Below, piece after piece: positions 18,745 through 40,860 of a DNA stretch of 64,000 bases; position 1 is the stretch's first letter, and every line of letters begins with the position of its first letter. The notes under the pieces are model-generated. The model had not been told where the DNA came from. It worked only from the letters and a program-made list of their open reading frames with translations, and made no database searches. Where the stretch lies: the NCBI GenBank assembly GCA_016192985.1, contig JACPTC010000017.1, positions 1,182 through 65,181 of the forward strand, written 5' to 3'. The position numbers and the translations under genes are program-made. Source of the DNA: Candidatus Woesearchaeota archaeon. GTDB lineage: Archaea; Nanobdellota; Nanobdellia; Woesearchaeales; GW2011-AR4.

Positions 18745-19554
18745 CTATTTACTCTTCTTTATTAGCGGCCCAAATGCAGTGAAATCCGGCCAGTTACCAA
18801 GCACTTGACCGCCGTCAATAGCGATTATCTGGCCAGTTATAAAATCAGCACCGCTTGAAGATAGGAAAGCAACACAATTAGCTATCTCTCCAGGACCAGC
18901 AAATCTTTGCAATGGTATTGTTGCTTTGAGCTGCTCTATCATCTTTTTATTATTAACCATCTCCTCATTAAAACCCTGTGTTGCTGTAATGCCAGGGGCA
19001 ATTGCATTGACATTGATTTTGTGCTTTGCAAGCTCCAAAGCCAAGCTCTTTGTCAGATTTATTACGCCTGCCCTTGCAGCGCCTGAATGGGCAAGTCCAG
19101 GAGCAGCCCTTATAGCATATATATGCACAATGTTTATTATCTTGCCGCCATTATTCTTCATGTACTTAACAGCTTCTCTGCAGCAAAACCAGGTGCCATA
19201 AAGATTGGTTTTCACAACAGCATCAAGCCCATTTGTCGAAATTTTTTCAAAAGGCGCAATAAACTGCCCGCCTGCATTATTTACAAGAATGTCTATACCG
19301 CCAAATTTTTCTTTTGTTTGCCTAAACAGATTTTCAACTTCTTGCTCATTTCTTATATCAGTTTTAATTGCCATGATGTTTCTTGTTATTTTTCTAAGCT
19401 CTCCGTAACCACTTTTCAAATGCCCCTCTTTTCTTCCAGCAATCACTATTTTAGCTCCTAATCTGGCAAGCCTAGCTGCAATCTCTTTTCCAATGCCTGT
19501 TGCTCCTCCAGTTATTACAGCAACTTTCCCTTTGAATAATTTTTTTTCAAACAT
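18745..19554 (-). CDS. SDR of the 2,4-dienoyl-CoA / trans-2-enoyl-CoA reductase (DECR/PECR-like) type
   Basis: TGGATGIGKEIA (TGxxxGxG). The segment LAHSGAARAGVINLTKSLALELAKHKINVNAIAPG closely follows the PECR/DECR pattern (HSGAARAGVxNLTKSLALEW) as I recall it. I prefer the ATG at 19554; the track start at 19563 is TTG. Confidence 0.7.
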   Translation of the reverse strand: MFEKKLFKGKVAVITGGATGIGKEIAARLARLGAKIVIAGRKEGHLKSGYGELRKITRNIMAIKTDIRNEQEVENLFRQTKEKFGGIDILVNNAGGQFIAPFEKISTNGLDAVVKTNLYGTWFCCREAVKYMKNNGGKIINIVHIYAIRAAPGLAHSGAARAGVINLTKSLALELAKHKINVNAIAPGITATQGFNEEMVNNKKMIEQLKATIPLQRFAGPGEIANCVAFLSSSGADFITGQIIAIDGGQVLGNWPDFTAFGPLIKKSK

Positions 19555-19570
19555 CTTAATCAATTAAAAA

Positions 19571-19987
19571 TCAAATATCCAATATCTTGACCAAAAATTC
19601 AGCTTTTACAACCTCTGTTCCATCTTGTTTTTTGACAGAACAGTCGCAAAGCAATCTCAGCTTTTCAGGATACTTTTCCTTTACATTAACTGTTGCAGTT
19701 ATTGTATCTCCTATAAACACAGGCGCTAAAAGCTTAATTTCTTTCTTTAACGCAATAACAATTGTATTGTCTGATGTGAACATATGCACCAATGCTGCTC
19801 CGATAGTGCTCTCTGTCAAAAAGCCATTTGTAGCCCTTCTTCCAAAGATTGATTTTTTCATCCTTTCTTCATCAAAATGCACGGGGTTGAAATCCTCAAC
19901 CAGTTCGCCAAATTTTCTGTTTACCTCTTCGGTTATAGTCTTTGTAAAAGTGCCCTGAAATCCAATTTTAAAATCATTGTACTTCAC
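19571..19987 (-). CDS. MaoC-like (R)-specific enoyl-CoA hydratase / hotdog dehydratase
   Basis: Hydratase-2 motif EDFNPVHFDEERMKKSIFGRRATNG (D.NP.H). The GTG start overlaps the DUF35 stop codon (GTGA). Confidence 0.75.
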   Translation of the reverse strand: MKYNDFKIGFQGTFTKTITEEVNRKFGELVEDFNPVHFDEERMKKSIFGRRATNGFLTESTIGAALVHMFTSDNTIVIALKKEIKLLAPVFIGDTITATVNVKEKYPEKLRLLCDCSVKKQDGTEVVKAEFLVKILDI

Positions 19988-20298
19988 TTTATCACCCTGA
20001 ATTTTGTTCCGTAATGCACTAGCCCATCATCACCATCAACATATATCCTTCTTATGCAGGGCTCAACTTCCATCCCTATTGAAATTTCATCGCTCTCCAC
20101 AATCTGAGATATAATTTTTTTCCCACTATCAAGACTTATAAGGGCAATAACATAAGGGGTATTTTTGTCAAACCCTTTTGGCGCAACATTCATTATAGTA
20201 AAGGATTCTACCTTGCCTTTGATATCAGCAATACTCCTGAATAATTTATATCTTTCTATTGACAATCTCCAAGCCAACGGGCTGCTTTCTTTGTGCAT
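19984..20298 (-). CDS. DUF35 OB-fold protein (thiolase/HMGCS scaffold type) lacking the zinc ribbon
   Basis: GKVESFTIMNVAPKGFDKNTPYVIALISLDSGKKIISQIVESDEISIGMEVEP matches the DUF35 OB-fold pattern. The N-terminus has no CxxC pairs. The gene lies directly downstream of the thiolase-like gene. Confidence 0.7.
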   Translation of the reverse strand: MHKESSPLAWRLSIERYKLFRSIADIKGKVESFTIMNVAPKGFDKNTPYVIALISLDSGKKIISQIVESDEISIGMEVEPCIRRIYVDGDDGLVHYGTKFRVIK

Positions 20299-20299
20299 T

Positions 20300-21412
20300 T
20301 TATCTGCTCCCGAATATGTTAACTGCTGAGACTGCTCCTGTTCCAGCCAAGGTATGAGTTAACCCAAAATACAACTTATTGGCATTTAGTCTGTTAATAA
20401 CATCTACAGCCTGCCTTACACCAGTTGCGCCAATGGCATGACCGCATGCCTTCAAGCCACCGCTCAAATTTATTTTTTTTGAATTTTTCTTGGCAAATTT
20501 AATGCCTTCCCCTTTTTTTGCAAACCCGAGGTCCTCAACAGCAATCACTTCAGAAATCGGAGTCACATCATGTAATTCCATCAAATCTATTTTTTCGCAG
20601 CTTACTCCAGCAATCCTGAATGAGTTTGCAGCGGCATTTATCGTTGAATGCATTGCAGTTATTGATTTTCTTTCAGACAAAGATAGCGAATCAGAGCTTG
20701 AGCAGCCCGCTAAAAGATAGCCCTTAACATCAGCATTTAACTTCCTTGCTGTTTCCTCACTGCACATAATCAATGCTGCAGCACCGTCACAATAAGATGC
20801 ACAGTCAAATACCCTTACCGGGTCAGAAAGCATAGGGCTTGAATTTATTTTTTCTTCTGAAAGCTCAAACCTATACTGGGCATTCAGATTATCCAATGCA
20901 TTCTTGTGGCTAGCTGATGGTATGAATGACAAGTCTTCTGGCGATAGTCTGAAATCATGCAAGTATCTTCTTGTCATAATTGCAAACTGACTAAAGATGC
21001 TTGCGCCTGCAGATGCCTCTTCCTCGCTTAAAAGCTCCGAGCTTAACAAAGCCAGCTCATTTGTTTTAAGGTCACTTACCTTCTCAACACCCAGAACCAT
21101 TGCCATTTTGCTCTCTCCTGCCAAAATAGAATTTGCAGCCTCTTTTATCGCAAGTGCTCCCGAAGCATCACCGGCATTTACACATATTCCATTGCTTATG
21201 CCCAGCTCCTCATACACCATTGAGCTTAGCAAAGCTTGTCCACCTGCTTTTGATGAAAATACATTTGAGATATACAATTCACCTATTTCATCTGGTTTTA
21301 ATTTTGAGTTGTCCAATGCATTTATCCCTGCTTCTCTTATAAGATCTCTAATGCCCTTGTCCCACAGCTCGCCAAATCTAGTTTGAGAAGTCGCAATTAT
21401 TGGAATCTTCAT
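20300..21412 (-). CDS. thiolase-family protein (SCP-x / archaeal acetoacetyl-CoA thiolase type) with Asp at the expected nucleophile position
   Basis: The C-terminal motifs ELHDVTP and GGLKACGHAIGATG are present. The N-terminal motif reads VNAGDASGALAI where thiolases have VxxxCA(S/T)G. Confidence 0.75.
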   Translation of the reverse strand: MKIPIIATSQTRFGELWDKGIRDLIREAGINALDNSKLKPDEIGELYISNVFSSKAGGQALLSSMVYEELGISNGICVNAGDASGALAIKEAANSILAGESKMAMVLGVEKVSDLKTNELALLSSELLSEEEASAGASIFSQFAIMTRRYLHDFRLSPEDLSFIPSASHKNALDNLNAQYRFELSEEKINSSPMLSDPVRVFDCASYCDGAAALIMCSEETARKLNADVKGYLLAGCSSSDSLSLSERKSITAMHSTINAAANSFRIAGVSCEKIDLMELHDVTPISEVIAVEDLGFAKKGEGIKFAKKNSKKINLSGGLKACGHAIGATGVRQAVDVINRLNANKLYFGLTHTLAGTGAVSAVNIFGSR

Positions 21413-21413
21413 A

Positions 21414-22445
21414 TTAAAAAACCCCTGTCATTTTGCAGTACTCCGCATATCCAATATATTTTTTATCATTGATGTAGTTTTTTGTTGCTCTTGCTTTTTT
21501 CAGTTTTTTTATATTTGGAGTCACTTTCAATAAAAATGAGTCGCTTCCGGCACCACTCCCAAATGATGTTACTAATATCTTCTGATTTGGCTTGGCTTTG
21601 TCAAGAATGTCTGTAAGTGCGAGCATTGAAGCAGCTGAATATGTATTGCCTATTTTTGACACAATCAAATTGCTTTCAAGCTTTTCCTCTGTAAATCCAA
21701 GAATCCTGCCGGCTCTTGTTGGAAACTTTCCATTAGGCGTGTGGAAAGCCACATGGTCTATTTCCTCTGGCTTGATTTTTGCCTTTTCCATCAAAAGCTT
21801 TGTGCATTTTACCAAATGGCTGAAATAAGCGGGCTCGCCTGTAAAGCGCTCTGCATGTTTTGGGTACTTTTGCATATTCCTCCTCCAGAAATCAGGCGTG
21901 TCAGACGATATAGAATGCATTGATTCTAGCTCTGCTATAACCTCTTTATTATCATTCCCAATAATGAAAGCTGCAGCTCCGGCTGACGCTGTGTACTCAA
22001 GAATGTCTCCAGGCATTGATTGCGATGTGTCTGCGCCAATAGCCAAGCCATAATCAACAAATCCTGATTTTGACAAGCCAAAAACCATCTGCATAGCAGC
22101 TGTGCCGGCTTTGCATGCAAATTCCACATCTGCTGAAGTATAATGACTTATTCCAAGAATCTCTCCAAGAATTGAAGCATTTGGCTTGACAGCGTATACA
22201 GGGCTTTCGGAACCAGAATACACCGCGCCTATTTTTGTTTTGTCAATATTAACCCTTTTTAGCGCATTTAAAGAGGCTTCAACACTCATTGTCAGGCTGT
22301 CTTCATCGTAGTCCGGCACGGATTTTTCTTCAATCATTAATTCTTTTTTTATAAATTCAGGATTCCTGCGTTGAATTCTGGCTATTTCCTCTACTTTAAT
22401 CCTATACATAGGTACGTACGCGCCATAGCTTACAATTCCAACCAT
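21414..22445 (-). CDS. hmgS: hydroxymethylglutaryl-CoA synthase (archaeal type)
   Basis: MVGIVSYGAYVPMYRI..., catalytic Cys context VEFACKAGTAAM, and the canonical HMGCS-thiolase-DUF35 gene order. Confidence 0.85.
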   Translation of the reverse strand: MVGIVSYGAYVPMYRIKVEEIARIQRRNPEFIKKELMIEEKSVPDYDEDSLTMSVEASLNALKRVNIDKTKIGAVYSGSESPVYAVKPNASILGEILGISHYTSADVEFACKAGTAAMQMVFGLSKSGFVDYGLAIGADTSQSMPGDILEYTASAGAAAFIIGNDNKEVIAELESMHSISSDTPDFWRRNMQKYPKHAERFTGEPAYFSHLVKCTKLLMEKAKIKPEEIDHVAFHTPNGKFPTRAGRILGFTEEKLESNLIVSKIGNTYSAASMLALTDILDKAKPNQKILVTSFGSGAGSDSFLLKVTPNIKKLKKARATKNYINDKKYIGYAEYCKMTGVF

Positions 22446-22468
22446 GTCAACCTCAAACTTAAAGTAGT

Positions 22469-23425
22469 TTAGCTATATTTAAGAATGTTTCCCGTATTAA
22501 ATTGACGATTAAATGCGACAAAAACACTTTTAGCGCCATCAACTGCAGCCCATTTTAATAGTTCCTTATTTTTTGTCAAACGAGTTAATCTAAACTTATC
22601 GTCAGGAAGTATAGTTGCTATATTCATATTATCAATTTTTATCTTTCCGGTAGAGATATTAAAAATATGCTTATAATCTTCAAAGCCCGTCAAATAACCA
22701 CCAAATAAGTTTTTGCTAAGCTTTGACAGAGCTTTTTTTAACAAAAATTTTTCTAAAAAACTTAAATATTTCTTAGGCTTTGGCTCGGTTAAGAGCACTA
22801 AAACATCCGTACAGCCGTCTTTAATCGCATCCTCTAATGGCACTGCTTTCTGGATGCCCCCATCCAAGAAACCTTTGTGATTAATTAAGACTGGTTTATT
22901 GTAATAAAGCGGTAATGCACAACTTGCTTTGAGCAATTTCAAAATATTTTTAGATTTGGAATTGCATCTTACAGCTCTACCAGTTTCTATATCAGTCGCA
23001 AAAAAATAAAACGGCGTTTTAGACTTTATAACTTTATATGTATCTAGTGGTTTTTTATTAATTACAACATTATCAAATAAATAATCAATGTCAACTATTT
23101 TATTTACTCTAAGTAAATTTATAAAATTAGAATTATTTATATCTTCGTAATAAATGCTTGTTCCAAATTGAGGTTGATCAGACAAAAAATAAGCAACGTT
23201 CATAGCCCCTCCAGACGAGGCGTATATTGCATCAAAAGCATTTCTTAATCCCAGATTATGAAGGGCAATTAGGGAGCCTGCACTAAAAATACCCCTCATA
23301 GCACCACCCTGCACTACCAAAGCAGATTTAATCCCTCTTTTTGAAATGTTTTTGCTCTTTATTCTTTCCTTATTTCTTATAATGATATTTCTTAATGATG
23401 TTTCTGGATTTATACCACACACCAT
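22469..23425 (-). CDS. patatin-like phospholipase/acyl hydrolase
   Basis: Oxyanion loop VVQGGAMRG, nucleophile elbow ASSGG (GxSxG-like), and catalytic Asp context FLDGG. Confidence 0.75.
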   Translation of the reverse strand: MVCGINPETSLRNIIIRNKERIKSKNISKRGIKSALVVQGGAMRGIFSAGSLIALHNLGLRNAFDAIYASSGGAMNVAYFLSDQPQFGTSIYYEDINNSNFINLLRVNKIVDIDYLFDNVVINKKPLDTYKVIKSKTPFYFFATDIETGRAVRCNSKSKNILKLLKASCALPLYYNKPVLINHKGFLDGGIQKAVPLEDAIKDGCTDVLVLLTEPKPKKYLSFLEKFLLKKALSKLSKNLFGGYLTGFEDYKHIFNISTGKIKIDNMNIATILPDDKFRLTRLTKNKELLKWAAVDGAKSVFVAFNRQFNTGNILKYS

Positions 23426-23448: not shown

Positions 23449-24183
23449 CTAATAAGACAATCCGCCATCTATGCGAATTACTTCCCCGGTTATATAACCT
23501 GCTTTGTCAGAAGCCAAGAAAGCAACCAACCCTGCGATATCAAAAGGAGTGCCTGCCCTGCCAATGGGTATCATTGCCAAAATTATTTTTCTTCTTATAA
23601 ACGGTATTGCCTTTGTCATGCTTGTATCTATAAAACCAGGAGCAACTGCATTTACAGTAATCCTTCTTTTGCCAAGCTCTCTTGCCAAAGACTTTGTGAA
23701 TCCAATTACCCCTGCTTTTGAAGCAGCATAATTTGTTTGCCCAAAATTGCCAAGCACGCCTGCAATAGAGCTTATGTTTATAATCCTACCATTGTCCCTC
23801 ATTATTGTGAGCGCATTTTTTGTCACATTAAAAGTTCCGTCAAGATTCGTTCTCATGACTCTATCCCATTGCTCTTTTGTCATATTTTTCAATGTCTTAT
23901 CTGCAAGCGCACCTGCGTTATTTACCAATATGTCAAGACAGCCGAACCTCCTCTTCACAAACTCAATCATTGAGGCGCATTGCTCAAAGCTTGAGACATC
24001 CGCCTTAACAGCAATTCCTTCAACCCCATTTTTTTTGATTTCTTCAACAACCTCGATGGACTCTTTCTCGTCTCTGTTGTAATTGACAATAACATTTGCA
24101 TTATTTTCGGAAAGCTCAATAGCAATAGCCTTTCCAATGCCTTTTGATGCTCCGGTTACCAATGCGACTTTTCTTATTGACAT
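23449..24183 (-). CDS. fabG: 3-oxoacyl-(ACP/CoA) reductase, FabG-like classical SDR
   Basis: VTGASKGIGKAIA; NISSIAG...YAASKAGVIGFTKSLA (S-Y-K triad); C-terminal GEVIRIDGG. Confidence 0.85.
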   Translation of the reverse strand: MSIRKVALVTGASKGIGKAIAIELSENNANVIVNYNRDEKESIEVVEEIKKNGVEGIAVKADVSSFEQCASMIEFVKRRFGCLDILVNNAGALADKTLKNMTKEQWDRVMRTNLDGTFNVTKNALTIMRDNGRIINISSIAGVLGNFGQTNYAASKAGVIGFTKSLARELGKRRITVNAVAPGFIDTSMTKAIPFIRRKIILAMIPIGRAGTPFDIAGLVAFLASDKAGYITGEVIRIDGGLSY

Positions 24184-25242: not shown

Positions 25243-26358
25243 TTATGCTACAATCCCTTTGTCAATAAATTCTTTTATAGAGCCTTTGCTGTAGCCGATT
25301 GATGCAAGAATCTCTTTTGAGTTTTCGCCCAATTTAGGCGCCCTATTATAATTCATTTTTTTAAATGATGAAAAAATCATAGGCATTGCAACTTGTTTTA
25401 CACCATCAAGCTGAATAATCACCTTTCTCTTATTCAAATCCTTATCATTAACCACATCTTTAATCTTGCTGACTGGCTCGCAGCAAAAGTCATGTTTCTT
25501 GTTTAGTCTTACCCATTCTGTTGATGTCTTACTTTTGAAGATACTCTTCATTTCTTTCATAATTGAGCTGTCCATTTGCCTTTTAAGAAAATCTTTTCTG
25601 TTGAGCGCATTGCAAAATGCCTGCCAGAATTTTTGCTCTACTGCACCGAGGCTTACGTATCTCTTGTCTTTTGTCCTGTATACATTATAACAGGGTGTAT
25701 TGTTGGATGAAAGCAAGGTTTTTGCACCTCCGGCAATAGAATAATGTGCAATATGGATCCCAATCAACGAAAGAGCGCTGCTAAATATTGGCACATCAAT
25801 ATAATTTCCATTCCCGCTTTTTTCCCTGTAAAATAATGATGAGGCAATTGAGAAGGCTGCTGTAACCGCACAACTTGTATCAGCAATTTGTATGCATGGC
25901 ACATAAGGCTTAAGAGATAAAGCCTCAAGCAGTCCGCTTGAAGCTATGTAATTCAAATCATGGCCAGCCCTGTTTTTATATTTAGCGTATTGCCCATAGC
26001 CGGATATTGAGCAGTAGATTATTTTTGGATTTATTTTTCTAATATTCTTGTAGCCAATGCTCAATGAGTCGGCTTTCCCAGGCCTGAAGCTTTCTATAAT
26101 CACATCCGCCTTTTTTGCAAGCTTCATGAAAATTTCTTTTCCTTTGCTTTTTTTAAGGTCTATTGCTATGCTCTTTTTGTTTCTGTTTAATGCGGAAAAA
26201 TAAGTCTGCGTATTTCTGAATACAACACTTCTCATAAAGTCCCCATGCAAGCCCTCTATCTTAACCACCTCAGCTCCCAGATCAGCAAGAAACAAAGAGC
26301 ACATTGGACCTGGCAAAAGAGTTGTTAAATCCAGAACTCGTATGCCTTTTAATAGCAT
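25243..26358 (-). CDS. family III CoA-transferase (CaiB/BaiF/AMACR-like)
   Basis: LKGIRVLDLTTLLPGPMCSLFLADLGAEVVKIEGLHGDFMR is the family III N-terminal signature. I prefer the ATG at 26358, which is preceded by AGGTGG; the track start at 26367 is GTG. Confidence 0.8.
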   Translation of the reverse strand: MLLKGIRVLDLTTLLPGPMCSLFLADLGAEVVKIEGLHGDFMRSVVFRNTQTYFSALNRNKKSIAIDLKKSKGKEIFMKLAKKADVIIESFRPGKADSLSIGYKNIRKINPKIIYCSISGYGQYAKYKNRAGHDLNYIASSGLLEALSLKPYVPCIQIADTSCAVTAAFSIASSLFYREKSGNGNYIDVPIFSSALSLIGIHIAHYSIAGGAKTLLSSNNTPCYNVYRTKDKRYVSLGAVEQKFWQAFCNALNRKDFLKRQMDSSIMKEMKSIFKSKTSTEWVRLNKKHDFCCEPVSKIKDVVNDKDLNKRKVIIQLDGVKQVAMPMIFSSFKKMNYNRAPKLGENSKEILASIGYSKGSIKEFIDKGIVA

Positions 26359-26531
26359 ATTTCCCACCTTAATTTCCTTAATTTAAATTCTTGAAGATGT
26401 GCACTGTTGCCATAGCACCCACACCCCCAATATTATGTGTTAATCCATATTTTGGCTTTTTTACTTGTCTTTCTTCAGCATTGTTCCTCATTTGCTTGAC
26501 AATTTCATAAACCTGCGCGAGTCCAGTAGGA

Positions 26532-26672
26532 CTTATCGGATGGCCTTTTGCTTTTAATCCGCCGCTTGTGTTGACAGGAAGCTCTCCATTTAACTCAGTC
26601 ACGCCTTTCCGTATTAAGCCTGAACCTTCCCCCTGCCTGCAAAATCCAAGGTCCTCGTAAGAAATAATCTCT
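26532..26672. repeat. 141-bp tract 100% identical to 29127-29267 (the 3' parts of the two thiolase paralogs)
   Basis: Base-by-base comparison of the two regions. Identity ends exactly at the disruption site in both copies. Confidence 0.85.
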
Positions 26673-26979
26673 AAATAATCTCTAAGGGAGTGAAAGCATC
26701 GTGCACTTCTGCAATGTCAATATCTTCAGGGCAAATTCCTGCCTCTTTGTATGCATTCGCCGCAGCCATTCTTGTTGCCTCCAATGAAGTCATATCCTCT
26801 CTTTCAAAAGGGCCAAGGTAATCATTGGATTCACCGGAGCCAGCTATCTCCACACTTCCTTTTTCTTTTGATATTATCAAAGCTGCTGAGCCATTGCATG
26901 AAATGCTGCAGTCAAAAAGCCTTAACGGAGACGCTACGACAGGCGAACTTTTAATCTCTTCAAGTGAAACTTTCTTGTG

Positions 26980-27132
26980 ATAGAACCTTGCCTTTGGGTT
27001 AAAGTATGCGTTCTTGTGGTTTTTGTATGCGACTAAGGCAAAATCATCAGTTGTAGCGCCGTGCTTCATCATGTATTGCTGCGCCACCAAGGCATTCTGG
27101 GCAGGGAAGTTAAGCCCTTCTGTCTGCTCATA
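26980..27132. repeat. 153-bp tract identical, except for one mismatch (27001 vs 29530), to 29509-29661
   Basis: Direct comparison. The tract encodes the shared peptide YEQTEGLNFPAQNALVAQQYMMKHGATTDDFALVAYKNHKNAYFNPKARFY. A further 32-bp identical block lies at 26906-26937 and 29435-29466. Confidence 0.85.
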
Positions 27133-27521
27133 AATGCGTTCGCCGCCCATGAGGATTTCGTCCGTCACTTTCTTGCTTATATTTGCAACAATCTTATCAA
27201 AGGCAACAGCCAGCACATTATCATAGTTGCTGGATCTTTGTAATTTTACCGCTGTCCATAAGGCTGTGCCGCCGCCAGCGCAACCTGCAGGCAGAGCAAG
27301 TATTGGCATTTTTTTCTGAAAAAGGCTGCTGAGCATTGAAGCACTATGCTTTTGCCTTTCGCCATTGCTCGTTACTTCAATGCTTGAAACAAAAACTGCA
27401 TCAATCTCATTCATAGTCATATCAGCATCATTCAGCGCTTCCATTACAGATTCATAAGCCATGTGGTATGATGCATCCTCTTGTGTGCCAAATCTTGTCA
27501 TGCCAACTCCCTTGACAAATA

Positions 27522-28973
27522 TCATCTAATCACCTTTGAAAGAAGCTTTGTCATCTTTGACTTTACTTTGTCAATAGGCGTTATTTTCGGTCTGCCTTGC
27601 GTTATAAGCAATTTTTTCAATAGGACAAGCTGCTCAAACTGGTCAATATTCTCTTCTATTTCTGCCATAGGCTCAAATTTCATACTTTGCAGCTTTTTTA
27701 TTGCACAGCCGCCTAACGCAACCAGCCTTTCTTTTCCTTTTAGCATATCTTCTGTCAGCATAGAGCCTATGATCAAATTTAATTCCTCTCCCCTTAATCC
27801 TATCAGCTTAGAAGTCAAATTATAGAGCAGGTTTAAGCATGCAGGACAGCTCTTGCCATCTATCACCTTTATATCAGGATGCGGCGTGTCGTGAGGCACA
27901 GCTGGCAATATGCTGTATTTTAATGCATCCACTTCATTACCAACCACTTCTATATGCTTTGAATCAAGGCATTTGCCATAAGCATCAATATAAGGTGGAA
28001 TTTCAAGCAACGTTACTTCGCAAAAGATTGCATCGACAGCAGCAAAGTTTTTGCCAGCTAATACCAAATTTAAGAAAGCAGGCTCACCTGACGCAAGAGG
28101 GCCTTGCCCCTGCATAGCTTTGGTTGCATCGGCTATGGTAAACACATTAGGAATAACTTTTGCTAGTTTAGCTATAATCTTGTCAAAGCCTACATAATAC
28201 ATCTCCCGCTGCGTTTTTTCATCCGCAAACCTTGCTAAATTTTCCAAAGCGCCAGAAAATCCAAGCTGAAAATTTGTCTTCATAATAGGCGCATTTATGA
28301 CCTTTCTATTCAAAGCTTCCTTGAATATTTTAAATGAAAACCCTTCTGATTCAATTTCCTCAAAAGGGCCCTTAGATATATCAAAAAAATTTACTCCATT
28401 CTTTTTGCAAACCTCAAGAATGCCGGCTTTTGCAGCAGCATCGTTTACATCTGAGCCAATCAAGGCTTGCTCAGCTACAACAACATCTTCCTTTTTTACG
28501 CCAAGCTCAAATAAAACCTTAAGCAATGCATCAAAAAATTCAGGATCTGTGTTTACTGCTTGATATGGGTAAGCTGCAGCTATTATGCTCGGCTTTACAA
28601 GAACTTTGTCGTTTGGGCTTAGCTCAAATTTCAGCAAGCCAAGTGTTTCTTTTATTGCCTCATATACATCATACTTCACTTTTGCTATAGAAACAGCATC
28701 TTCAGTTTTTGCCTTTTCTTGAATGTAATTGTCTCCTAGTTTATAATCTTTCATTGTTTTTTTTGGCATTCTGTTGCCAAACTCATCCTGTAAAAGAATA
28801 ATGTTATAAGGTATGATTGGATGCATTGGAGATTGAATAGAAACTTTTGTAATTCCGACTACTTTCAGCTTAGAGCCTTTTTGCTTGGTAATTTCTCCTT
28901 TGCAATAAACACATTTCTCAACAGGATAAATCCACTTCTTGTTGCATCTATCACATATCCATCTTATTATCAT
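27522..28973 (-). CDS. fusion protein: N-terminal DUF35 (Zn ribbon plus OB fold) and C-terminal DUF362 domain
   Basis: N-terminus: [20 protein letters not shown], then an OB fold ([31 protein letters not shown]). C-terminus: [33 protein letters not shown] and [21 protein letters not shown]...[13 protein letters not shown] match the DUF362 pattern as I recall it. It overlaps both flanking thiolase ORFs by 4 bp. Confidence 0.65.
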
Positions 28974-32637: not shown

Positions 32638-33360
32638 ATGAAATACACATTTTATCCTTTCAAATCTTTGACTTCAACTCAAGATAAAGCCAAAGAATTC
32701 TCCAAAAAAGCATCAAGCAGCATAGTTGTAATTGCAGATACACAAACAGAAGGAAGAGGCCGCTTTAAGAGAAAATGGCATTCTGCCAAAGGCGGCATAT
32801 GGATGTCAATATTGTTAATTCCAAGCAATATTGAAAAGTTGCAATACCTCACATTTATCGCAGCCATATCGGTAGTCAGATCAATAAAAAAAACTACAAA
32901 ATTAAAAACAAATATCAAATGGCCCAATGACGTTCATTACAAAGGCAAAAAACTGTGCGGCATTCTTACAGAAGGGATTTTTGGCAGAGAAAATTATGTA
33001 GTTGTTGGAATAGGATTAAACGTAAACCAAACAGAATTTTCTGATGATGTTAAGGATACAGCAACATCATTAAAGATAGTCAAAAAAAGAACAATTAATA
33101 TTGAAAAAATTAAAAAAACCCTAATTAGCGAATTTTTTATTTTATATGAAAAATACTATAATAAAAATAAACTAAAAGACATATCAAAAATCTGGAGAAA
33201 GCATTGCGACACATTAGGCAAAAATGTAACAATCATAACAAAAACAAAAATATTTACCGGAAAAGCAATTGGAATTGACGAAAACTGCAATCTATTGCTA
33301 AAACAAAAAAACAATGAAATAACAAGGATTGTGGAAGGGGACGTAAATGTAAGATATTAG
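32638..33360 (+). CDS. birA: biotin-protein ligase (BirA catalytic type, no N-terminal HTH)
   Basis: DTQTEGRGRFKRKWHSAKGGIWMSILL (the GRGRxGRxW motif) and KWPNDVHYKGKKLCGILTE. Confidence 0.85.
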   Translation: MKYTFYPFKSLTSTQDKAKEFSKKASSSIVVIADTQTEGRGRFKRKWHSAKGGIWMSILLIPSNIEKLQYLTFIAAISVVRSIKKTTKLKTNIKWPNDVHYKGKKLCGILTEGIFGRENYVVVGIGLNVNQTEFSDDVKDTATSLKIVKKRTINIEKIKKTLISEFFILYEKYYNKNKLKDISKIWRKHCDTLGKNVTIITKTKIFTGKAIGIDENCNLLLKQKNNEITRIVEGDVNVRY

Positions 33361-33460
33361 CCTATCTTAATCTTTTTTCTTATATCAGCCGGAATTTTGC
33401 AATTCAGGAGAGAGATTATTTCCCGCAACCTTTAAAAAAGATACAGTATAACCCTGTAAG

Positions 33461-33688
33461 ATGGCAATTCTGGGAAGCATACCAATATTAAGAAAACTTG
33501 TCGATACAACATATGCAATTCTGATAGTCATTATACTGAGCGCACTAGTAGGCTTGATTCTTGCGTTTCCCGTGATGTGGCTATGGAACTATGTATTCGG
33601 CAGCTTCCACAAAATAAGCGTTTTTCAGGCATGGGCTTTGAACGTTTTGGCAGGTATTTTGTTCGGGCATAAAAACTCTGGAAAGTAA
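33461..33688 (+). CDS. small two-TM membrane protein, hypothetical
   Basis: Two hydrophobic helices (AILIVIILSALVGLILAFPVMWLW and AWALNVLAGILFG). I recognise no family. Confidence 0.4.
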   Translation: MAILGSIPILRKLVDTTYAILIVIILSALVGLILAFPVMWLWNYVFGSFHKISVFQAWALNVLAGILFGHKNSGK

Positions 33689-33689: not shown

Positions 33690-34364
33690 CTACAGAATTT
33701 TATCCAAATCCAAGAACTTCTCAAAATTTTTTGCTAAACTGCCCAAATCCTTAGAAAAAGGCACAACTCCTGCCAGCTCCGCTTTGCTAAAATTTTGTAT
33801 CACTTTTTTATTGTCTTCTTCAATTTTACCTCCTTTATAATAATTTACTATCACTCCCTTTACTTTCACACCGTTTTGGTATAAGGCTCTCAAAGTCAAG
33901 CTTGTGTGGTTGATTGTCCCAAGACCGGACCTCGCTACAACAATCACTTCAGATTTTAAATCTTTTATCAAATCGAGAACCGAATAATGCCTTGTCAATG
34001 GAACAAGCAAACCGCCGGCGCCTTCTATAATAACATAATCAAACATTCTGCACAATTCTTCATAATGCGACCTTATCATCTTTGGTCTTACTTTCCTATT
34101 TTCCAGCTCAGCAGCCAAATGCGGTGAGGATGCAAATTTGAAGCTATAATCGTTGAACAGACACTCATTAGAAATTCCGCTTAATTTTTTAACTAATGCA
34201 AGATCCGGAGAAGCAATCCTTCCTTTCAATAGGTTGCCGCACTGCACAGGTTTATAAACTGCAACATTCTTTTTGTTATCGAGAAGAATTTTCGCAAGAC
34301 CACAGGCTATTACAGTCTTTCCAACTCCTGTGTCAGTGCCGGCTATAAAAATCCCTTTTCCCAT
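33690..34364 (-). CDS. bioD: dethiobiotin synthetase
   Basis: GIFIAGTDTGVGKTVIACGLAK (the GTdTgVGKT P-loop) and EGAGGLLVPL. Confidence 0.85.
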   Translation of the reverse strand: MGKGIFIAGTDTGVGKTVIACGLAKILLDNKKNVAVYKPVQCGNLLKGRIASPDLALVKKLSGISNECLFNDYSFKFASSPHLAAELENRKVRPKMIRSHYEELCRMFDYVIIEGAGGLLVPLTRHYSVLDLIKDLKSEVIVVARSGLGTINHTSLTLRALYQNGVKVKGVIVNYYKGGKIEEDNKKVIQNFSKAELAGVVPFSKDLGSLAKNFEKFLDLDKIL

Positions 34365-35395: not shown

Positions 35396-35417
35396 ATGAA
35401 TATTTAAAAATATTCAT
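35396..35417. promoter_or_regulatory. palindromic bidirectional promoter/operator between the bioD operon and bioF (ATGAATATT-TAAA-AATATTCAT)
   Basis: A perfect 9-bp inverted repeat, 35396-35404 / 35409-35417. It contains TTTAAATA (minus strand, 35408-35401) 22 nt upstream of the ATG at 35378. TTTATGAA (35393-35400) lies 22 nt upstream of the bioF ATG at 35423. Confidence 0.5.
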
Positions 35418-35422
35418 TGCTT

Positions 35423-36556
35423 ATGAAAGAAAAACTGAAAGAATTGAAAAATAAAAATCTTTTTCGGGATTTCAGGACAATAACTGGTTCTTGCAGTAAT
35501 ACCTCAACATACAATGGCAAAGAATATATCATGCTGGCGTCAAACAACTATTTCGGTTTGAACACTAACCATAAGGTCATTGCGGCAGCTAAGAAATCAA
35601 TAGACAAATATGGCACAGGAAATGAAGCTTCTCGTCTTATTGTAAACCTTGATTTGCATGCAAAGCTTGAAAAAGAAATTGCGAGCTACAGAAAATGCAG
35701 CGCTGCAATGGTTTTTTCAAGCGGATACGCAGCTAACACAGGAATAATAAGCAGCATTGCTGGAAAAGGGGACATAATTCTTAGCGACCAGCTTAACCAT
35801 GCAAGCATAATAGACGGATGCAGGCTCAGTAAAGCAACAACCCATATCTACCAGCACTGCAATGTCGAACACTTAAAAACTATCCTAAAAAAAGTCAAAA
35901 AAAACAATAAGAAAATTTTGATTGTTACTGACACTGTTTTCAGTATGGATGGAGACATTGCACCGTTAAATCAAATAATTGAGTTAAAGGATAAATACAA
36001 TTTTATGCTTATGGTAGATGATGCCCATGCTATAGGGGTCTTAGACACAAACTTCAAGGAGATAGATATACATATGGGAACTTTGTCAAAGGCGCTCGCT
36101 TCACAAGGCGGCTATGTTGCTGGAAGCAAAGAGCTTATAGAATTCCTAAGAAATTTCTCAAGGCCATTCATTTACTCAACAGGCTTAGCGCCACCAAATG
36201 CTGCAGCCGCTTTGGCTGCACTGAAAATTCTAAGAAATGGAAAAAAACTAAGGAGAAAATTGCTCGATAATTCAAATTACATGCGGAGTAATCTTAATAA
36301 GCTGGGCTTTGACGCATTAGGGGAGCTTCAAATTATACCTTTAATAATAGGCGAAAACAAAAAGACAATGCAATTCCAGAAATCGCTTGAAATAGAAAGA
36401 ATTTTTGTTACTGGAATAAGGCCGCCAACAGTTCAAAATGCAAGACTGCGCATTTCTATAATGGCAACACATACAAGACAGCAATTGGACAAATCATTAA
36501 AGGCTTTCAATAAAATCGGCACTAAGATGGGATTAGTTCCTCATGCCCAAAGATAA
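35423..36556 (+). CDS. bioF: 8-amino-7-oxononanoate synthase
   Basis: Alpha-oxoamine synthase pattern: ...GTGNEASRLI..., DDAHAIGV, and the PLP lysine context GTLSKALASQGGYVAG. I prefer the ATG at 35423; the track start at 35417 is TTG. Confidence 0.85.
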   Translation: MKEKLKELKNKNLFRDFRTITGSCSNTSTYNGKEYIMLASNNYFGLNTNHKVIAAAKKSIDKYGTGNEASRLIVNLDLHAKLEKEIASYRKCSAAMVFSSGYAANTGIISSIAGKGDIILSDQLNHASIIDGCRLSKATTHIYQHCNVEHLKTILKKVKKNNKKILIVTDTVFSMDGDIAPLNQIIELKDKYNFMLMVDDAHAIGVLDTNFKEIDIHMGTLSKALASQGGYVAGSKELIEFLRNFSRPFIYSTGLAPPNAAAALAALKILRNGKKLRRKLLDNSNYMRSNLNKLGFDALGELQIIPLIIGENKKTMQFQKSLEIERIFVTGIRPPTVQNARLRISIMATHTRQQLDKSLKAFNKIGTKMGLVPHAQR

Positions 36557-37211
36557 CCTGCACGCCTCTGAGGCCCCTTATCATTTCATAGCATTCAATT
36601 ATCTTATCAGGGTTCCATAATATGCCAGGCAGGCAATTATATTTAAGATTTTCAGAAGAGTAACAAGCGTCGCCGGCAATAAAAATTCTTTTGCCGTTCA
36701 GGTTTATAAAAACGGATTGATGACCTTCTGTGTGCCCCGATGTAGGGATTATGATTATCTTGCCGTCACTGAACAAATCCAATCTGCCTTCTATAATCCT
36801 ATATTTTAAGTTCCCGTTAAAATTATCCTGATAAGCGAGTTTCTGATAAATCTTCGGACTTATTGCAGATTCATACTCTTTTTTTTGAATTATTATATCT
36901 GAGCCAATAAATGAGCTGTTATTTTCACAATGGTCAATATGCAAGTGGGTGTTTATAATAAAATCAATTTTTATGCCTCTTAAATATTTAATTACATCAG
37001 TTTCCAAAATTGGTTGGTAAAACTTCAGCCTTTTTCCCCAAGTCTCTTGAAAGTCTGATGAGAAACCTGTGTCAACAAGCACATTGCCTTTTTCATGTTT
37101 TACAAGAAAGCAAAATACAGGTATTTTAACTTTGTTTCCCATACCTCTTCCAAGAGTCACAAATCCCTTGTCACATTCCAAATACCCGTTCTTTATAATG
37201 TCCAACTCCAC
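36522..37211 (-). CDS. metallo-beta-lactamase-fold hydrolase (lactonase/esterase-like)
   Basis: The HxHxDH motif is INTHLHIDHC, with a later HTEGH. I chose the start GTG at 37211. The in-frame ATG at 37283 would put the N-terminus across the promoter and 5' end of the divergent methyltransferase gene. Confidence 0.7.
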   Translation of the reverse strand: MELDIIKNGYLECDKGFVTLGRGMGNKVKIPVFCFLVKHEKGNVLVDTGFSSDFQETWGKRLKFYQPILETDVIKYLRGIKIDFIINTHLHIDHCENNSSFIGSDIIIQKKEYESAISPKIYQKLAYQDNFNGNLKYRIIEGRLDLFSDGKIIIIPTSGHTEGHQSVFINLNGKRIFIAGDACYSSENLKYNCLPGILWNPDKIIECYEMIRGLRGVQVIFGHEELIPS

Positions 37212-37214
37212 GCT

Positions 37215-37232: not shown

Positions 37233-37252
37233 AAATAAAAACTTTATGGAAT

Positions 37253-37942
37253 ATGAAAGAGACAAAAATTTCAAATACAGCATCGCTCACAGCAGTGTGG
37301 CGCTATATGGGAAATGTGGATAGCATTTCAATCAAGGAAGTGCCACTTTACCAAAAATTGGTGGCATACACTCTAGGGTTACTCGACAAAGCGAGCGTAC
37401 GAACAATTACACAAAGGACAAAAATTATTGACTCATTGATATATAAAATAAAACCAAGAACAATTGTTGAGATAGGCGCCGGATATTCATCGAGGTCAAA
37501 GCGCTTTCCACAGATAAAATTCTATAATCTAGATTTGCCAGAAATAGCATATAACAAAAAAGACGTAGTGTCATTTGACATAAGCAAAGAATCTTTGGAA
37601 ATTGACGTAGGAAAAGCCTTGTTCATTGTTGAAGGAGTTGCAATGTACTTGAACGATAATGAAGTGATTAAACTGCTAAAAGAAATTAAAAAATACAAAG
37701 GCCATTTGATCATAGATTTTTTTGACAAGGAAAAGTCAACAAGGCAAAAGACAATAAAAGAGAATATTTACAAACTTATTTTCAAGCTATTCATAGGTAA
37801 GAACCATATTTTTGATTTTAGGATAGAAAATTTGGAATCGGGGAAAATGCTGCTGGAGAGATTCGGGTATAAAAACATAAAATATTATGATTACAATCTT
37901 GAAAAAACGCTTGACTGCTTATTTTATGCGGAATTCAATTGA
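37253..37942 (+). CDS. LCMT/TIGR00027-type SAM-dependent O-(carboxyl) methyltransferase
   Basis: [13 protein letters not shown] (tAl..A..Ra), [15 protein letters not shown] (LGaGlDtRa.R), [14 protein letters not shown] (.EvD.P.v...K) and [15 protein letters not shown] (.EGvl.YL) all fit the family pattern. Confidence 0.65.
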
Positions 37943-38918
37943 TTTGGAGATTTTCAGATTCTTTGAATGCTTTTCTCGTCCTTAACCCAAATAAATTTAA
38001 CATCTTCATGTCATCGTTAAACTCAGGGTTTGGTGTTGTGAGCAACTTGTCTCCAGCAAATATGGAGTTTGCCCCAGCCAAAAAACAGAGGGCTTGAGCT
38101 TCCTTACTCATTTGCAATCTCCCAGCCGACAGCCTCACCATAGATTTTGGCAGCATAATCCTTGCTGTGGCTATCATTCTTACCATCTCCCAGACTTGAA
38201 TAATGCCCCTATTCCCAAGAGGCGTCCCTTTTATTGGAACAAGCGCGTTTATAGGCACAGATTCCGGATGTGGGTGCAGATATGACAACGTAAGAAGCAT
38301 TTTTATCCTGTCTTTTACTGATTCCCCCATCCCAATAATGCCGCCACAGCAAACTGTTATTCCAGCTTTTCTTACATTTTCTAAAGTTCTCAAACGGTCT
38401 TGAAATGTTCTGGTAGTAATTATTCTCTCATAAAACTCCTCTGAAGTGTCTATATTGTGGTTGTAAGCGTAAAGGCCCGCTTCTTTGAGTCGTCTTGCTT
38501 GGCTTTCGGTCAGCATGCCAAGAGTGCAGCACACTTCCATTCCGAGATCATTCACAGCTTTAACCATTTCTAGTACATTCTCAAAATCATCATTGTCCTT
38601 TATCTCACGCCATGCTGCACCCATGCAAAATCTTGTAGAGCCATTCAATTTAGCATTTTTTGCAGACTCAACAACTTTTTCTATTGGCAACAATGACTCA
38701 ATTTTGATTCCTGTGCTATAGCGGGCAGCTTGAGGGCAATAAGCGCAATCTTCGCTACAAGCGCCTGTTTTTATTGACAATAAAGAGCTTAATTGAACCT
38801 CGCTTGGATCATGAAATTGCCTATGAACGGTCGCAGCCTTGTAAATCAATTCAAGCAAAGGCATGTTATAAATTTTAAGCGCTTCTTCCTCAGCCCAATC
38901 ATACCTTACAATTTGCAT
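37935..38918 (-). CDS. bioB: biotin synthase (radical SAM)
   Basis: [14 protein letters not shown] (CxxxCxxC), together with family length and further motifs (GGIIGMGES). Confidence 0.9.
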
Positions 38919-38947
38919 AGTATTTTCATATTGTTCTATCCAAAAAA

Positions 38948-39337
38948 TCAGCCTATCACTACCAAAACATCCCCCTTACCGACATTGCCATCTTTCTTAA
39001 CTTTTATCTCTTTCACAACACCATCTCTTGGCGAAGTAATATCATTTTCCATCTTCATTGCCATCAAAGTAAATAAGCTTTGGCCTTGTTTTACTTCATC
39101 GCCTTCCTTTACCTTCACATCATAAACAATCCCAGGCAAGGGAGATGTTATCTCAATTTTTCCTACTTCTGTTGCATGCTTTTTATGCAGCCTCTCTACA
39201 GCTGACGGTTCAGCGTCTTTCTTTGTCTCAACTTCGTAAACATCACCTTCGCAGTGGACTAATATCTTGCCTTCTTCTGTTTCTTCTACAAATACCTTGT
39301 ATTCTTTACCGTCAACCTTAACAAAAAGCTCTTCCAT
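38948..39337 (-). CDS. accB: biotin carboxyl carrier protein (biotinyl/lipoyl domain)
   Basis: [41 protein letters not shown] contains the AMKM biotinylation motif. Confidence 0.85.
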
Positions 39338-39339
39338 GT

Positions 39340-40860
39340 CTACAAAGGCATGTTGCCATGCTTTTTAGCAGGCCTTTTTTCTCTTTTAGCAAGCATCATT
39401 TCAAGGCATTTAACCAAAGCGATCCTTGTATTTCTTGGCTCAATTATCATATCCACCTTGCCAAGCTTTGCAGCAACGTAAGGATTAAGGTATTTTTCAG
39501 CGTATTCCTTAACAATCTCATCTTTTGCTTTAGTATTTTTGCTTATTTCGTCCCTGTTGATTATACTGACAGCCTGCTCAGCACCCATAACTGCAATCTC
39601 GGCAGAAGGCCATGCGAGCACTTTGTCAAATCCCATCTCTTTTGATACAAGGGCAATATAAGCGCCGCCGTACGCTTTTCTCATAACAAGCGATATTTTT
39701 GGCACAATAGCTTCAGAATAAGCATAAATCACTTTTGCGCCATGCCTTATAATCCCATTATGCTCCTGCTCACTTCCTGGCAGATACCCTGTTACATCCA
39801 CAAGATTAATCAAGGGTATGTTAAAGCAGTCACAAAATCTCACAAATCTGGCAATCTTATCTGAGGAATTAATGTCTAAGCATCCTGCCAGCACTTTTGG
39901 CTGGTTAGCTACAATGCCTACAACATCCCCATTAAGTCGCGCAAATCCTACAACAATATTAGAGGCAAAATTGCCCTGAACTTCAAAAAACGATTTTTTG
40001 TCGAAAACTTCATTAACCACCTCTTTTATGTCATATGTTTTTTTAGGGTCTTCTGGAACAATATATTCGAGCCTCTTTGTGTCTCTCAATGCATTGTCAT
40101 TAGAGTTATGGGGAGGATTCTCCAGATTGTTCTGGGGAAGATAGGCAAGCAAGGCCTTAATCATGTCCATGCATTCTTTCTCATTGTCAGCCACGAAATG
40201 AGCCACACCGCTCTTCTCATGAGCAAAAGCGCCGCCAAGCCCTTCAAAGTCTATTGTCTCACCAGTTACCGTTTTAATAACTTCCGGCCCTGTAATGAAC
40301 ATGTGGCTAGTTTTCTTAACCATAAAAACAAAGTCTGTCAATGCAGGGCTATAAACAGCGATTCCTGCGCAAGGTCCGAGTATAGCAGATATCTGCGGTA
40401 TAATGCCTGATGACAATGTATTGAGCTGAAATATTCTGCCGCCTGTATCCAAGGCTTCTACACCTTCCTGTATTCTTGCGCCTCCTGAGTCTAGCAATCC
40501 AATTATTGGGCATCCTGTTTTTAAGGCAAGTTCTATCACATCAGCTATCTTTTTATTATGCATCTCACCCATTGAGCCACCCATAAAAGAGAAGTCTTGG
40601 GCATAAACATAAACAGGCCTTTTGTGTATTGTCCCATAGCCTACTATAACACCATCTCTGGAGCTCTTTTTTGCTCCTATCTCATTGCTTTGCAGCTCAG
40701 CAAAAGCATCAAGCTCTGTGAAAGAATCAGGATCAAGCAAATACCTCAAGCGCTCCTTGGCAGTTAGCTTTCCTTTCTTGTGTTGCAACTCAACAGCTTG
40801 CTTATCATCTTGCAATTCTTTAACCTTATCAAGAAATTCCTTCAGCTTATTGCTAGTCAT
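39340..40860 (-). CDS. pccB: acyl-CoA carboxylase carboxyltransferase subunit (PccB/AccD-type)
   Basis: HKKGKLTAKERLRYLLDPDSF..., FMGGSMGEMH and LLDSGGARIQEG fit the carboxyl_trans family. Confidence 0.85.
   Translation of the reverse strand: MTSNKLKEFLDKVKELQDDKQAVELQHKKGKLTAKERLRYLLDPDSFTELDAFAELQSNEIGAKKSSRDGVIVGYGTIHKRPVYVYAQDFSFMGGSMGEMHNKKIADVIELALKTGCPIIGLLDSGGARIQEGVEALDTGGRIFQLNTLSSGIIPQISAILGPCAGIAVYSPALTDFVFMVKKTSHMFITGPEVIKTVTGETIDFEGLGGAFAHEKSGVAHFVADNEKECMDMIKALLAYLPQNNLENPPHNSNDNALRDTKRLEYIVPEDPKKTYDIKEVVNEVFDKKSFFEVQGNFASNIVVGFARLNGDVVGIVANQPKVLAGCLDINSSDKIARFVRFCDCFNIPLINLVDVTGYLPGSEQEHNGIIRHGAKVIYAYSEAIVPKISLVMRKAYGGAYIALVSKEMGFDKVLAWPSAEIAVMGAEQAVSIINRDEISKNTKAKDEIVKEYAEKYLNPYVAAKLGKVDMIIEPRNTRIALVKCLEMMLAKREKRPAKKHGNMPL

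Follow-up and report, generated by a model that had tools for sequence, protein, structure and literature searches.

From what source does an archaeon that carries the late genes of biotin synthesis obtain its pimeloyl thioester? The question is raised by a 64-kb stretch of a Woesearchaeota (DPANN) genome, referred to here as the window, in which a block of ~22 kb at positions 18745-40860 brings biotin genes together with genes of fatty-acid type and with the parts of an acyl-coenzyme A (acyl-CoA) carboxylase. A first-pass annotation had read the whole block as a dedicated pathway to pimeloyl-CoA that operates without acyl carrier protein (ACP). According to a 2018 study, no source of pimelate is known in archaea apart from the BioW of Methanococcales (PMC6138646). 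The block is composed of three modules, namely a fatty-acid-type set, a biotin supply slot and a mevalonate trio. Within the slot lies a pair of genes, for an S-adenosylmethionine (SAM)-dependent methyltransferase and a metallo-beta-lactamase-fold (MBL) hydrolase, which we propose as the source of the pimeloyl moiety by way of resident CoA enzymes; this composite reading of the locus has, in our estimate, an even chance of being correct.

The open reading frames (ORFs) of the window were searched against the Pfam and NCBIfam profiles. All ORFs of the 18.7-45 kb region and most of those of at least 100 residues beyond it, outside the ribosomal stretch at 4-16 kb, were scanned, and about 20 related loci, designated by L numbers, served for comparison. 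The block holds 23 ORFs and is coding throughout; RadB, a DRG GTPase, ribosomal proteins, SecY and glycosylation genes flank it. The linkage of its genes recurs in numerous Woesearchaeal genomes, with protein identities of 45-80%, and is therefore not due to chance. Most of the gene families named in the first-pass annotation were borne out by Pfam and NCBIfam, but the gene at 21414-22445 is an HMG-CoA synthase and a homologue of BioU had been missed. The coordinates and profile scores of the individual genes are summarized in Table 1.

Six genes in the order bioB, LCM-type methyltransferase, MBL hydrolase, bioF, bioU and bioD constitute the biotin cassette. bioF, the consumer of a pimeloyl thioester, is kept within the cassette across loci, and bioB adjoins the methyltransferase in all related loci; the gap of 29 nt between BCCP and bioB is as previously given. 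bioU and bioF are divergent, with a gap of 38 nt. The BioU homologue has 45-50% identity to the cyanobacterial BioU proteins, that of Synechocystis included, and an invariant lysine at K114. Neither the window nor any cassette locus examined yielded a bioA; the BioU homologue, which lies between bioD and bioF, would explain the missing gene, for which it is predicted to substitute. The BioU loci nearest to that of the window are from metagenome-assembled genomes (MAGs) of Woesearchaeota or Nanoarchaeia. The closest non-archaeal homologues, from Omnitrophota and Planctomycetia (L011-L016, L041), share 58-64% identity, above the cyanobacterial range, which suggests that bioU has been transferred between domains. 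The operons of these bacteria run bioU-bioF-bioD, preceded by bioB in L014-L016.

Since bioF, bioU, bioD and bioB cover the later steps, pimeloyl supply is the only step that is left without a candidate. In agreement with the first-pass annotation, no BioW, BioC, BioH, BioI, BioZ, FabD or FabH/F was found among the scanned ORFs of the window, and a rough ACP profile gave no match in the window and 11 related loci. The related loci likewise showed neither BioW nor BioI, and no alpha/beta-hydrolase gene was seen among the scanned ORFs of the window. One related locus has an additional class I methyltransferase of 240 residues between bioU and bioD (L007 10966-11688); it scores 37.4 bits with the BioC model against a cut-off of 184.95, occurs in that locus only, and was rejected as a BioC.

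Between bioB and bioF, the genes for the methyltransferase and the MBL hydrolase are arranged divergently as a pair. In ~12 non-redundant contexts, taken from loci for which BioU or the LCM-type methyltransferase served as anchor, the cassette is constant and contains the pair with no exception, the identity of the methyltransferase falling to 45%; in the loci examined the methyltransferase always has bioB on one side and the MBL gene on the other. In L045 the whole cassette is inverted. L008 and L010 carry it next to purL/purQ and rpS15, and no carboxylase or fatty-acid genes are present in the recovered DNA, which extends 5-9 kb on most sides and ~0.5 kb past bioD in L008. The clades of both proteins are narrow and were found nowhere besides the cassette, and neither gene was seen in the non-Woesearchaeal BioU loci (bacterial, cyanobacterial and haloarchaeal; mostly 5-10 kb on either side).

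The Pfam LCM match (PF04072) of the cassette methyltransferase lies above the cut-off of 22.3 bits and contains no individually significant stretch, and that to TIGR00027 lies under the cut-off. The BioC model (TIGR02072) gives no match with this protein at E<=1. In 33 homologues the SAM motifs VEIGxGxSxR, D94 and EGVxMYL do not vary, and the clade comprises ~34 proteins, each at least 50% identical. A profile search of 1.84 billion representatives returned two full-length clusters plus fragments; the scores are 257 bits for the full-length proteins and 98 bits for the last fragment, and then fall to at most 60 bits. At that level, all nine of the nearest outgroups tested are ordinary LCM proteins (PF04072), and on these similarities the cassette methyltransferase is classed as a divergent member of the LCM family. 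The AlphaFold2 model has a pLDDT of 93.7 and a class I O-methyltransferase fold, and a search with the sequence against the PDB gave no match. Carboxyl methyl esters are the products of LCM-family enzymes such as PPM1/LCMT1, TYW4 and TcmP. The cassette protein is thus a candidate BioC-like carboxyl O-methyltransferase.

The longest ORF of the MBL hydrolase encodes 253 residues and overlaps the start of the methyltransferase. All homologues have 227-232 residues, and the true start is therefore probably at 37211, giving 229 residues and a divergent intergenic region of 41 nt between the two genes. The clade consists of ~70 proteins of at least 58% identity, and the next homologue, at 38%, belongs to an unrelated bacterial cluster. 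Against the equivalog models for N-acyl homoserine lactone (AHL) lactonases the hydrolase scores 128 bits (cut-off 390) and 106 bits (cut-off 375). AHL lactonases of the PDB align to it with E ~1e-21, and at E 6e-22 the HxHxDH motif, the further His and the Asp..Tyr positions of the dinuclear metal site line up. The protein has, in other words, the fold and active site of the lactonases and lies by score outside their characterised subfamilies. The alignment of metal-binding and catalytic positions makes an ester hydrolase activity chemically plausible, and the protein is a candidate BioH-like methyl-ester esterase. Its MBL fold with the HxHxDH metal site is in contrast to the alpha/beta-hydrolase fold and Ser-His-Asp triad of BioH, BioG, BioK, BioJ and BioV.

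The pairing of a methyltransferase with an ester hydrolase follows the same logic as BioC and BioH. In the scheme that we propose, the cassette methyltransferase would methyl-esterify the free carboxyl of malonyl-CoA supplied by the adjacent carboxylase. The masked primer would then be elongated in two rounds by resident CoA enzymes, namely a ketothiolase with a DUF35-like partner, FabG, FabZ or MaoC, and a short-chain dehydrogenase/reductase (SDR), and the MBL hydrolase would cleave the methyl ester to give pimeloyl-CoA for BioF. A methyl-ester entry had already been put forward as one of two options in the first-pass annotation. The part that concerns the pair is retained as a proposal, as the two genes are invariant in the cassette and specific to it; the part that assigned a dedicated elongation set does not, and general enzymes would serve instead, as in E. 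coli. Gene context is what supports this entry. That the two proteins are non-homologous analogues of BioC and BioH, acting with resident CoA elongation enzymes, is possible and close to evenly balanced, with the balance tipping slightly to the other side. The wider proposal, that Woesearchaeota make pimeloyl by an ACP-independent, CoA-based masked-malonate route in which an LCM methyltransferase and an AiiA-type hydrolase bracket a thiolase-based elongation, is tentative and is placed by us somewhat below an even chance.

The modular character of the block is evident from six Woesearchaeal loci anchored on the DUF362 protein at 61-71% identity (L049, L050, L051, L055, L056, L057). All six run through carboxyltransferase, BCCP, slot, a hydrophobic 75-residue protein (tm75), in part a 4HBT gene, birA, accC, FabZ, thiolase, DUF362 and thiolase, with more genes of fatty-acid type. 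The biotin supply slot is the position between BCCP and birA, and its content varies: it is occupied by the cassette in L051, by BioY in L050, by BioY with Trx10, an ABC protein and CbiQ (ECF-type) in L055 and L057, and by an unrelated Beta-lactamase2-like gene for 764-855 residues in L049 and L056. Biotin genes and fatty-acid-type genes are thus linked in many relatives, but each is also found without the other in the DNA recovered. Because the modules occur without each other, their linkage is best explained by the biotin need of the carboxylase: the biotin genes sit here because the carboxylase consumes biotin.

The fatty-acid-type set is the general fatty-acid module of the lineage and is not dedicated to biotin. 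It begins with the FabZ-like gene, which adjoins accC in all related loci. FabG, FabI and FabZ have already been noted in MAGs of DPANN archaea and Woesearchaeota (PMC10936187). GpsA and two PlsC-type acyltransferases are located within a few kb of the module in three relatives (L050 18223-20494, L051 16815-19070, L056 17904-20147), which suggests that the module serves fatty acid and lipid synthesis in general. The presence of a bacterial-type, NAD-dependent GpsA with PlsC further suggests a bacterial-style synthesis of acyl-glycerol-phosphate lipids in these archaea. The family III CoA-transferase also belongs to this module and not to the cassette: it is present without the cassette in L049, L050 and L056, and is missing from the cassette locus L051.

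The 483-residue DUF362 protein, unmentioned in the first-pass annotation, is always situated between two ketothiolases. It has more than 331 Woesearchaeal homologues, and among the 120 listed the named sources are Woesearchaeota or Nanoarchaeota. Its N-terminus is rich in beta structure and carries a CxxC...CxxC motif. In a Foldseek search with its AlphaFold2 model (pLDDT 78), the body matches LarA-type racemases (E 1e-7) and the N-terminus matches DUF35 partners of thiolase-like enzymes (E 1e-3 to 5e-2), with no Pfam match to DUF35 in that N-terminus. At the structural level, the N-terminus may therefore be described as a DUF35-like zinc ribbon with an OB fold. LarA-type racemases use a nickel-pincer cofactor.

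Further genes of the module differ among relatives. The 329-residue methyltransferase, whose score with the BioC model led to its rejection as a BioC, is fused to an SDR in L050 (14422-16143) and L051 (13307-15019), where the fusion protein has 570-573 residues; a similar arrangement is seen in polyketide and fatty-acid megasynthases with their methyltransferase-ketoreductase didomains. The HMG-CoA synthase trio, patatin and FabG lie between the methyltransferase and SDR genes of the window. The patatin gene had likewise gone unmentioned. None was called in L049, L050, L051, L056 and L057, all of which cover the region, and in L049 FabG abuts the HMG-CoA synthase.

The condensing enzymes require separate consideration. 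Ketothiolases A and B, which enclose the DUF362 gene, are both frameshifted as assembled. Removal in silico of the 11-nt duplication in B yields a thiolase of 378 residues that matches PDB 7YVY at E 1.5e-66, and the orthologues of A are uninterrupted with the cysteine kept. The two genes share an identical tract of ~140 nt, and both lesions fall exactly on its 5' edge. The genes are whole in L005, L047, L049, L051, L056 and L057 and are fragmented in the MAGs L050 and L055; the Logan contigs L001 and L054 stop short of the lesions. Misassembly at this repeat or gene-conversion tract is suspected as the cause of the lesions and appears likely, with genuine pseudogenes as the less probable alternative. 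A reading of both thiolases as malonyl-CoA-using condensing enzymes, from their HDAF in place of HDCF, would account for the carboxylase linked to them but was dropped, as the acetyl-CoA acetyltransferase 7YVY also has HDAF.

The gene at 21414-22445, previously counted as a free condensing enzyme, passes both HMG-CoA synthase equivalog models. Together with a thiolase-like protein and a DUF35 protein it makes up the usual archaeal mevalonate-entry trio, which is interleaved in the block. The thiolase-like partner has 'NAGDASG' and 'ELHDVT' where the Methanothermococcus enzyme (M. thermolithotrophicus, 6ESQ) has 'EAACASG' and 'EVHDCF'. The Cys-to-Asp change is kept in the window, in L049 (16790-17899) and in L057 (14371-15510), down to 39% identity, and the protein may serve as a scaffold or carry some other activity. 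The succession thiolase-like, DUF35, MaoC is also reminiscent of the Ltp2-ChsH2 aldolase system.

Several observations weigh against the proposed role of the pair. The assignment as analogues of BioC and BioH rests on gene context and family chemistry. The LCM match of the methyltransferase is weak, Foldseek returns a generic O-methyltransferase fold only, at TM ~0.5, and the MBL hydrolase resembles lactonases rather than known methyl esterases. The bacterial and haloarchaeal bioB-bioU-bioF-bioD operons (L014-L016, L038, L039, L044) are without both genes, from which it follows that the pair is not needed for BioU chemistry. In its assembled form the window lacks an intact canonical ketothiolase, A and B being frameshifted and the third protein being without the cysteine, unless assembly errors are responsible; moreover, the ketothiolase of the Sulfolobus fatty acid synthase discussed below does not use malonyl-CoA (bioRxiv 10.1101/2024.07.05.601840). 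Finally, BioW or another source of pimelate may be encoded elsewhere in the genome, as the search covered the 64-kb window and the related loci.

The explanation first advanced, in which the entire block is a dedicated ACP-less pathway that forms glutaryl-CoA by the family III CoA-transferase and condenses it by thiolase and DUF35 to 3-oxopimeloyl-CoA in the manner of BioZ and CaiB, draws on the co-localisation of the genes, on a CoA-transferase whose best NCBIfam matches include the CaiB succinate-glutarate transferase, and on the precedent of Desulfovibrio, where fatty-acid-synthase-like genes lie inside a biotin cluster (PMC10102598). It does not agree with the distribution of the modules. 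The fatty-acid set persists without biotin synthesis genes at the locus in L049, L050 and L055-L057, in three of them with the CoA-transferase (L049, L050, L056), and the cassette lacks the fatty-acid set in the recovered flanks of L008 and L010 and the CoA-transferase in L051. Nor do the individual enzymes fit: the CoA-transferase scores 157.9 bits with the CaiB model (NF052585) against a cut-off of 750, the sole KAS III-like gene is the HMG-CoA synthase, with no ACP match to accompany a BioZ-like entry, and the thiolase adjacent to DUF35 is without the cysteine. We regard a dedicated glutaryl-CoA pathway as very unlikely. It is only marginally less improbable that the pair are unrelated passengers, a quorum-quenching lactonase and a stray O-methyltransferase that were fixed in the cassette by chance. 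NCBI does label the hydrolase 'N-acyl homoserine lactonase family protein', and the cassette genomes all belong to one lineage, so that common descent could account for some of the conservation. Nevertheless, the position and orientation of the pair survive inversion (L045), relocation (L008, L010) and divergence to 45% identity while other genes change around and inside the cassette, the catalytic motifs are invariant, and neither clade was found outside it.

A further explanation accepts the pair as a true part of the cassette and gives it another role, for example on an intermediate, in a protection or recycling linked to BioU, or in vitamer salvage, with pimeloyl coming from a BioW elsewhere, from promiscuous fatty-acid metabolism, or from the host or environment. 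Strict linkage speaks for a role in biotin metabolism and names no step, the MBL hydrolase looks like a lactonase, and reliance on partners for metabolites is frequent among DPANN archaea (PMC10936187). On the other hand, all the later steps of ring assembly have enzymes, so that pimeloyl supply is where a candidate is wanted, and the combination of a methyltransferase with an ester hydrolase is what the BioC/BioH logic calls for. The BioU loci recovered from bacteria, cyanobacteria and haloarchaea, mostly with 5-10 kb on either side, are without the pair. Another role for the pair is unlikely in our judgement, though it deserves serious consideration beside the masked-malonate proposal.

Table 1. 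Genes of the block at 18745-40860 in the 64-kb window, with coordinates, strand and the matches on which each assignment is based.
Feature	Coordinates	Strand	Basis
SDR, candidate enoyl-CoA reductase	18745..19563	-	best NCBIfam match is 2,4-dienoyl-CoA reductase, 232 bits vs cut-off 318
MaoC-type (R)-specific enoyl-CoA hydratase/dehydratase	19571..19987	-	MaoC_dehydratas domain
DUF35 OB-fold protein without zinc-ribbon cysteines	19984..20298	-	OB_ChsH2_C, E 5.7e-15
Thiolase-like partner of HMG-CoA synthase, Asp for nucleophilic Cys	20300..21412	-	best PDB match 6ESQ
Archaeal HMG-CoA synthase, mevalonate entry	21414..22445	-	NF003274 490.3 bits vs 244; TIGR00748 449.3 vs 353.35
Patatin-like lipase/acyl hydrolase	22469..23425	-	Patatin domain, E 2.3e-20; between HMG-CoA synthase and FabG
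FabG-type 3-ketoacyl reductase	23449..24183	-	TIGR01830 300.1 bits vs cut-off 297.75
Class I SAM methyltransferase-like protein, 329 residues	24190..25179	-	Pfam; BioC model 20.3 bits vs 184.95
Family III CoA-transferase	25243..26367	-	CoA_transf_3 322 bits; specific NCBIfam models far under cut-offs
Ketothiolase B, frameshifted by 11-nt tandem duplication (tagagattatt), 26671-26692	26368..27525	-	thiolase profile
DUF362 protein with putative DUF35-like fusion, 483 residues, between two ketothiolases	27522..28973	-	Pfam DUF362
Ketothiolase A, frameshifted by 55-nt deletion near 29258	28975..30039	-	loss includes HD(A/C)F motif
FabZ-like hotdog dehydratase, first gene of module	30052..30543	-	FabA domain; NF000582 104 bits vs cut-off 113
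accC, biotin carboxylase	30695..32605	+	TIGR00514 656 bits vs cut-off 626
birA, biotin-protein ligase without repressor domain	32638..33360	+	TIGR00121 182 bits vs cut-off 83
tm75, 75-residue hydrophobic protein, birA-side edge of biotin supply slot	33461..33688	+	translation; no Pfam match on record
bioD, dethiobiotin synthase, other cassette end	33690..34364	-	TIGR00347 154.8 bits vs cut-off 83.3
BioU homologue, 322 residues	34410..35378	-	NF047886 392.8 bits, E 1e-117, residues 3-322, cut-off 600
bioF, 8-amino-7-oxononanoate synthase	35417..36556	+	TIGR00858 399.8 bits, cut-off 426; Aminotran_1_2
AiiA/AttM-type MBL-fold hydrolase	36522..37211 (longest ORF to 37283)	-	Lactamase_B
LCM-family SAM methyltransferase, 229 residues	37253..37942	+	Pfam LCM 26.0 bits; TIGR00027 E 3.5e-9
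bioB, biotin synthase, one cassette end	37935..38918	-	TIGR00433 408.7 bits vs cut-off 225; Radical_SAM and BATS domains
BCCP, biotin carboxyl carrier protein	38948..39337	-	Biotin_lipoyl domain; best NCBIfam match is BCCP model
PccB/MmdA-type acyl-CoA carboxyltransferase	39340..40860	-	Carboxyl_trans 594 bits; TIGR01117 717 bits, under cut-off

tm75 is kept in nearly all loci that cover the birA-side edge of the slot, whether beside the cassette, beside BioY or beside neither, and is missing in L008 and L010. The ORF, which lies next to bioD, was rejected as an ACP, being a hydrophobic membrane protein without a match to the rough ACP profile. Most relatives have a YbgC/FadM-type 4HBT acyl-CoA thioesterase gene between tm75 and birA (for example L047 5782-6180 and L049 5141-5587), with or without the cassette; the window is without it and has ~100 nt at this place (33360-33461). 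accC carries an N-terminal extension of ~135 residues (30695-31099) that has no family match. The extension is kept in most relatives, in which the protein has 636-658 residues, and the protein is shorter (552-562 residues) in L055 and L056.

The analysis has yielded two lineage-confined candidate genes that bear on the archaeal pimeloyl question, and no dedicated elongation pathway at the locus. In the literature searched, neither MBL hydrolases nor LCM methyltransferases are connected with pimeloyl synthesis, and no description of biotin synthesis in DPANN archaea was found there either. If the proposal for the pair is true, the methyl-ester disguise was invented at least twice with unrelated enzymes and works on CoA thioesters with a thiolase-based archaeal synthase; it would be the first candidate archaeal route to pimeloyl besides BioW and the first replacement of BioC by an unrelated methyltransferase. 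The hypothesis is limited to one lineage and is based on synteny; in this clade an elongation cluster of this kind is nothing unusual. As the slot demonstrates, some members of a group usually called partner-dependent, the DPANN archaea, produce biotin themselves for a carboxylase tied to fatty-acid-type genes, while other genomes have the BioY importer.

Comparison with known systems places each module. The mevalonate trio shares its components and their order with the archaeal thiolase/HMG-CoA synthase/DUF35 complex (6ESQ/6ET9), whereas Cys85 and HDCF of that complex are not present in the thiolase of the window. The cyanobacterial BioU, a suicide enzyme that replaces BioA, aligns with the cassette protein over its full length at the identity given above; the protein here is archaeal, and its 393 bits lie under the cut-off of 600. 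A family III CoA-transferase and a gene of KAS III fold are found near biotin genes here as in the BioZ/CaiB system of alpha-proteobacteria (PMC7645780). In contrast to that system, the product of the KAS III-fold gene is HMG-CoA synthase, the CoA-transferase falls under the CaiB cut-off and does not co-occur with the cassette, and there is no ACP.

In Desulfovibrio vulgaris, the biotin genes of DVU2558-2565 are interleaved with FabZ-like and FabG-like genes, and BioC, BioH and BioW are absent (PMC10102598). That set is dedicated to biotin as judged by mutant fitness, with a special ACP and FabF and no methyl esters (PMC10102598), whereas here the fatty-acid-type genes persist without biotin genes, neither ACP nor KAS is present, and there is a methyltransferase/esterase pair. 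A closer likeness is offered by the ACP-independent fatty acid synthase of Sulfolobus acidocaldarius, which consists of a ketothiolase, a ketoacyl-CoA reductase, a hydroxyacyl-CoA dehydratase, a DUF35 scaffold and an enoyl-CoA reductase (bioRxiv 10.1101/2024.07.05.601840). All of these component types are represented here by family, with cysteine-bearing archaeal ketothiolases, a DUF35-like partner and no ACP detected, although both ketothiolases are frameshifted as assembled and the Woesearchaeal set is a putative equivalent. It differs from the Sulfolobus synthase in the putative fusion of the DUF35-like domain to a DUF362 (LarA-like) protein, in the bacterial type of FabG and FabZ and in the tight link to an acyl-CoA carboxylase, and some Woesearchaeal relatives add GpsA and PlsC-type acyltransferases.

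For the pair itself, the system of reference is BioC/BioH of E. coli, in which BioH is known to be replaceable by the unrelated esterases BioG, BioK, BioJ and BioV (PMC3494674, PMC4751477). In the arrangement proposed here, an LCM protein would stand in place of BioC, an MBL fold in place of the alpha/beta-hydrolase, CoA thioesters in place of those of ACP, and thiolases in place of KAS. What the two systems would share is their logic, in which a SAM methyltransferase and an ester hydrolase are kept with the biotin genes while elongation is left to the general fatty-acid enzymes.

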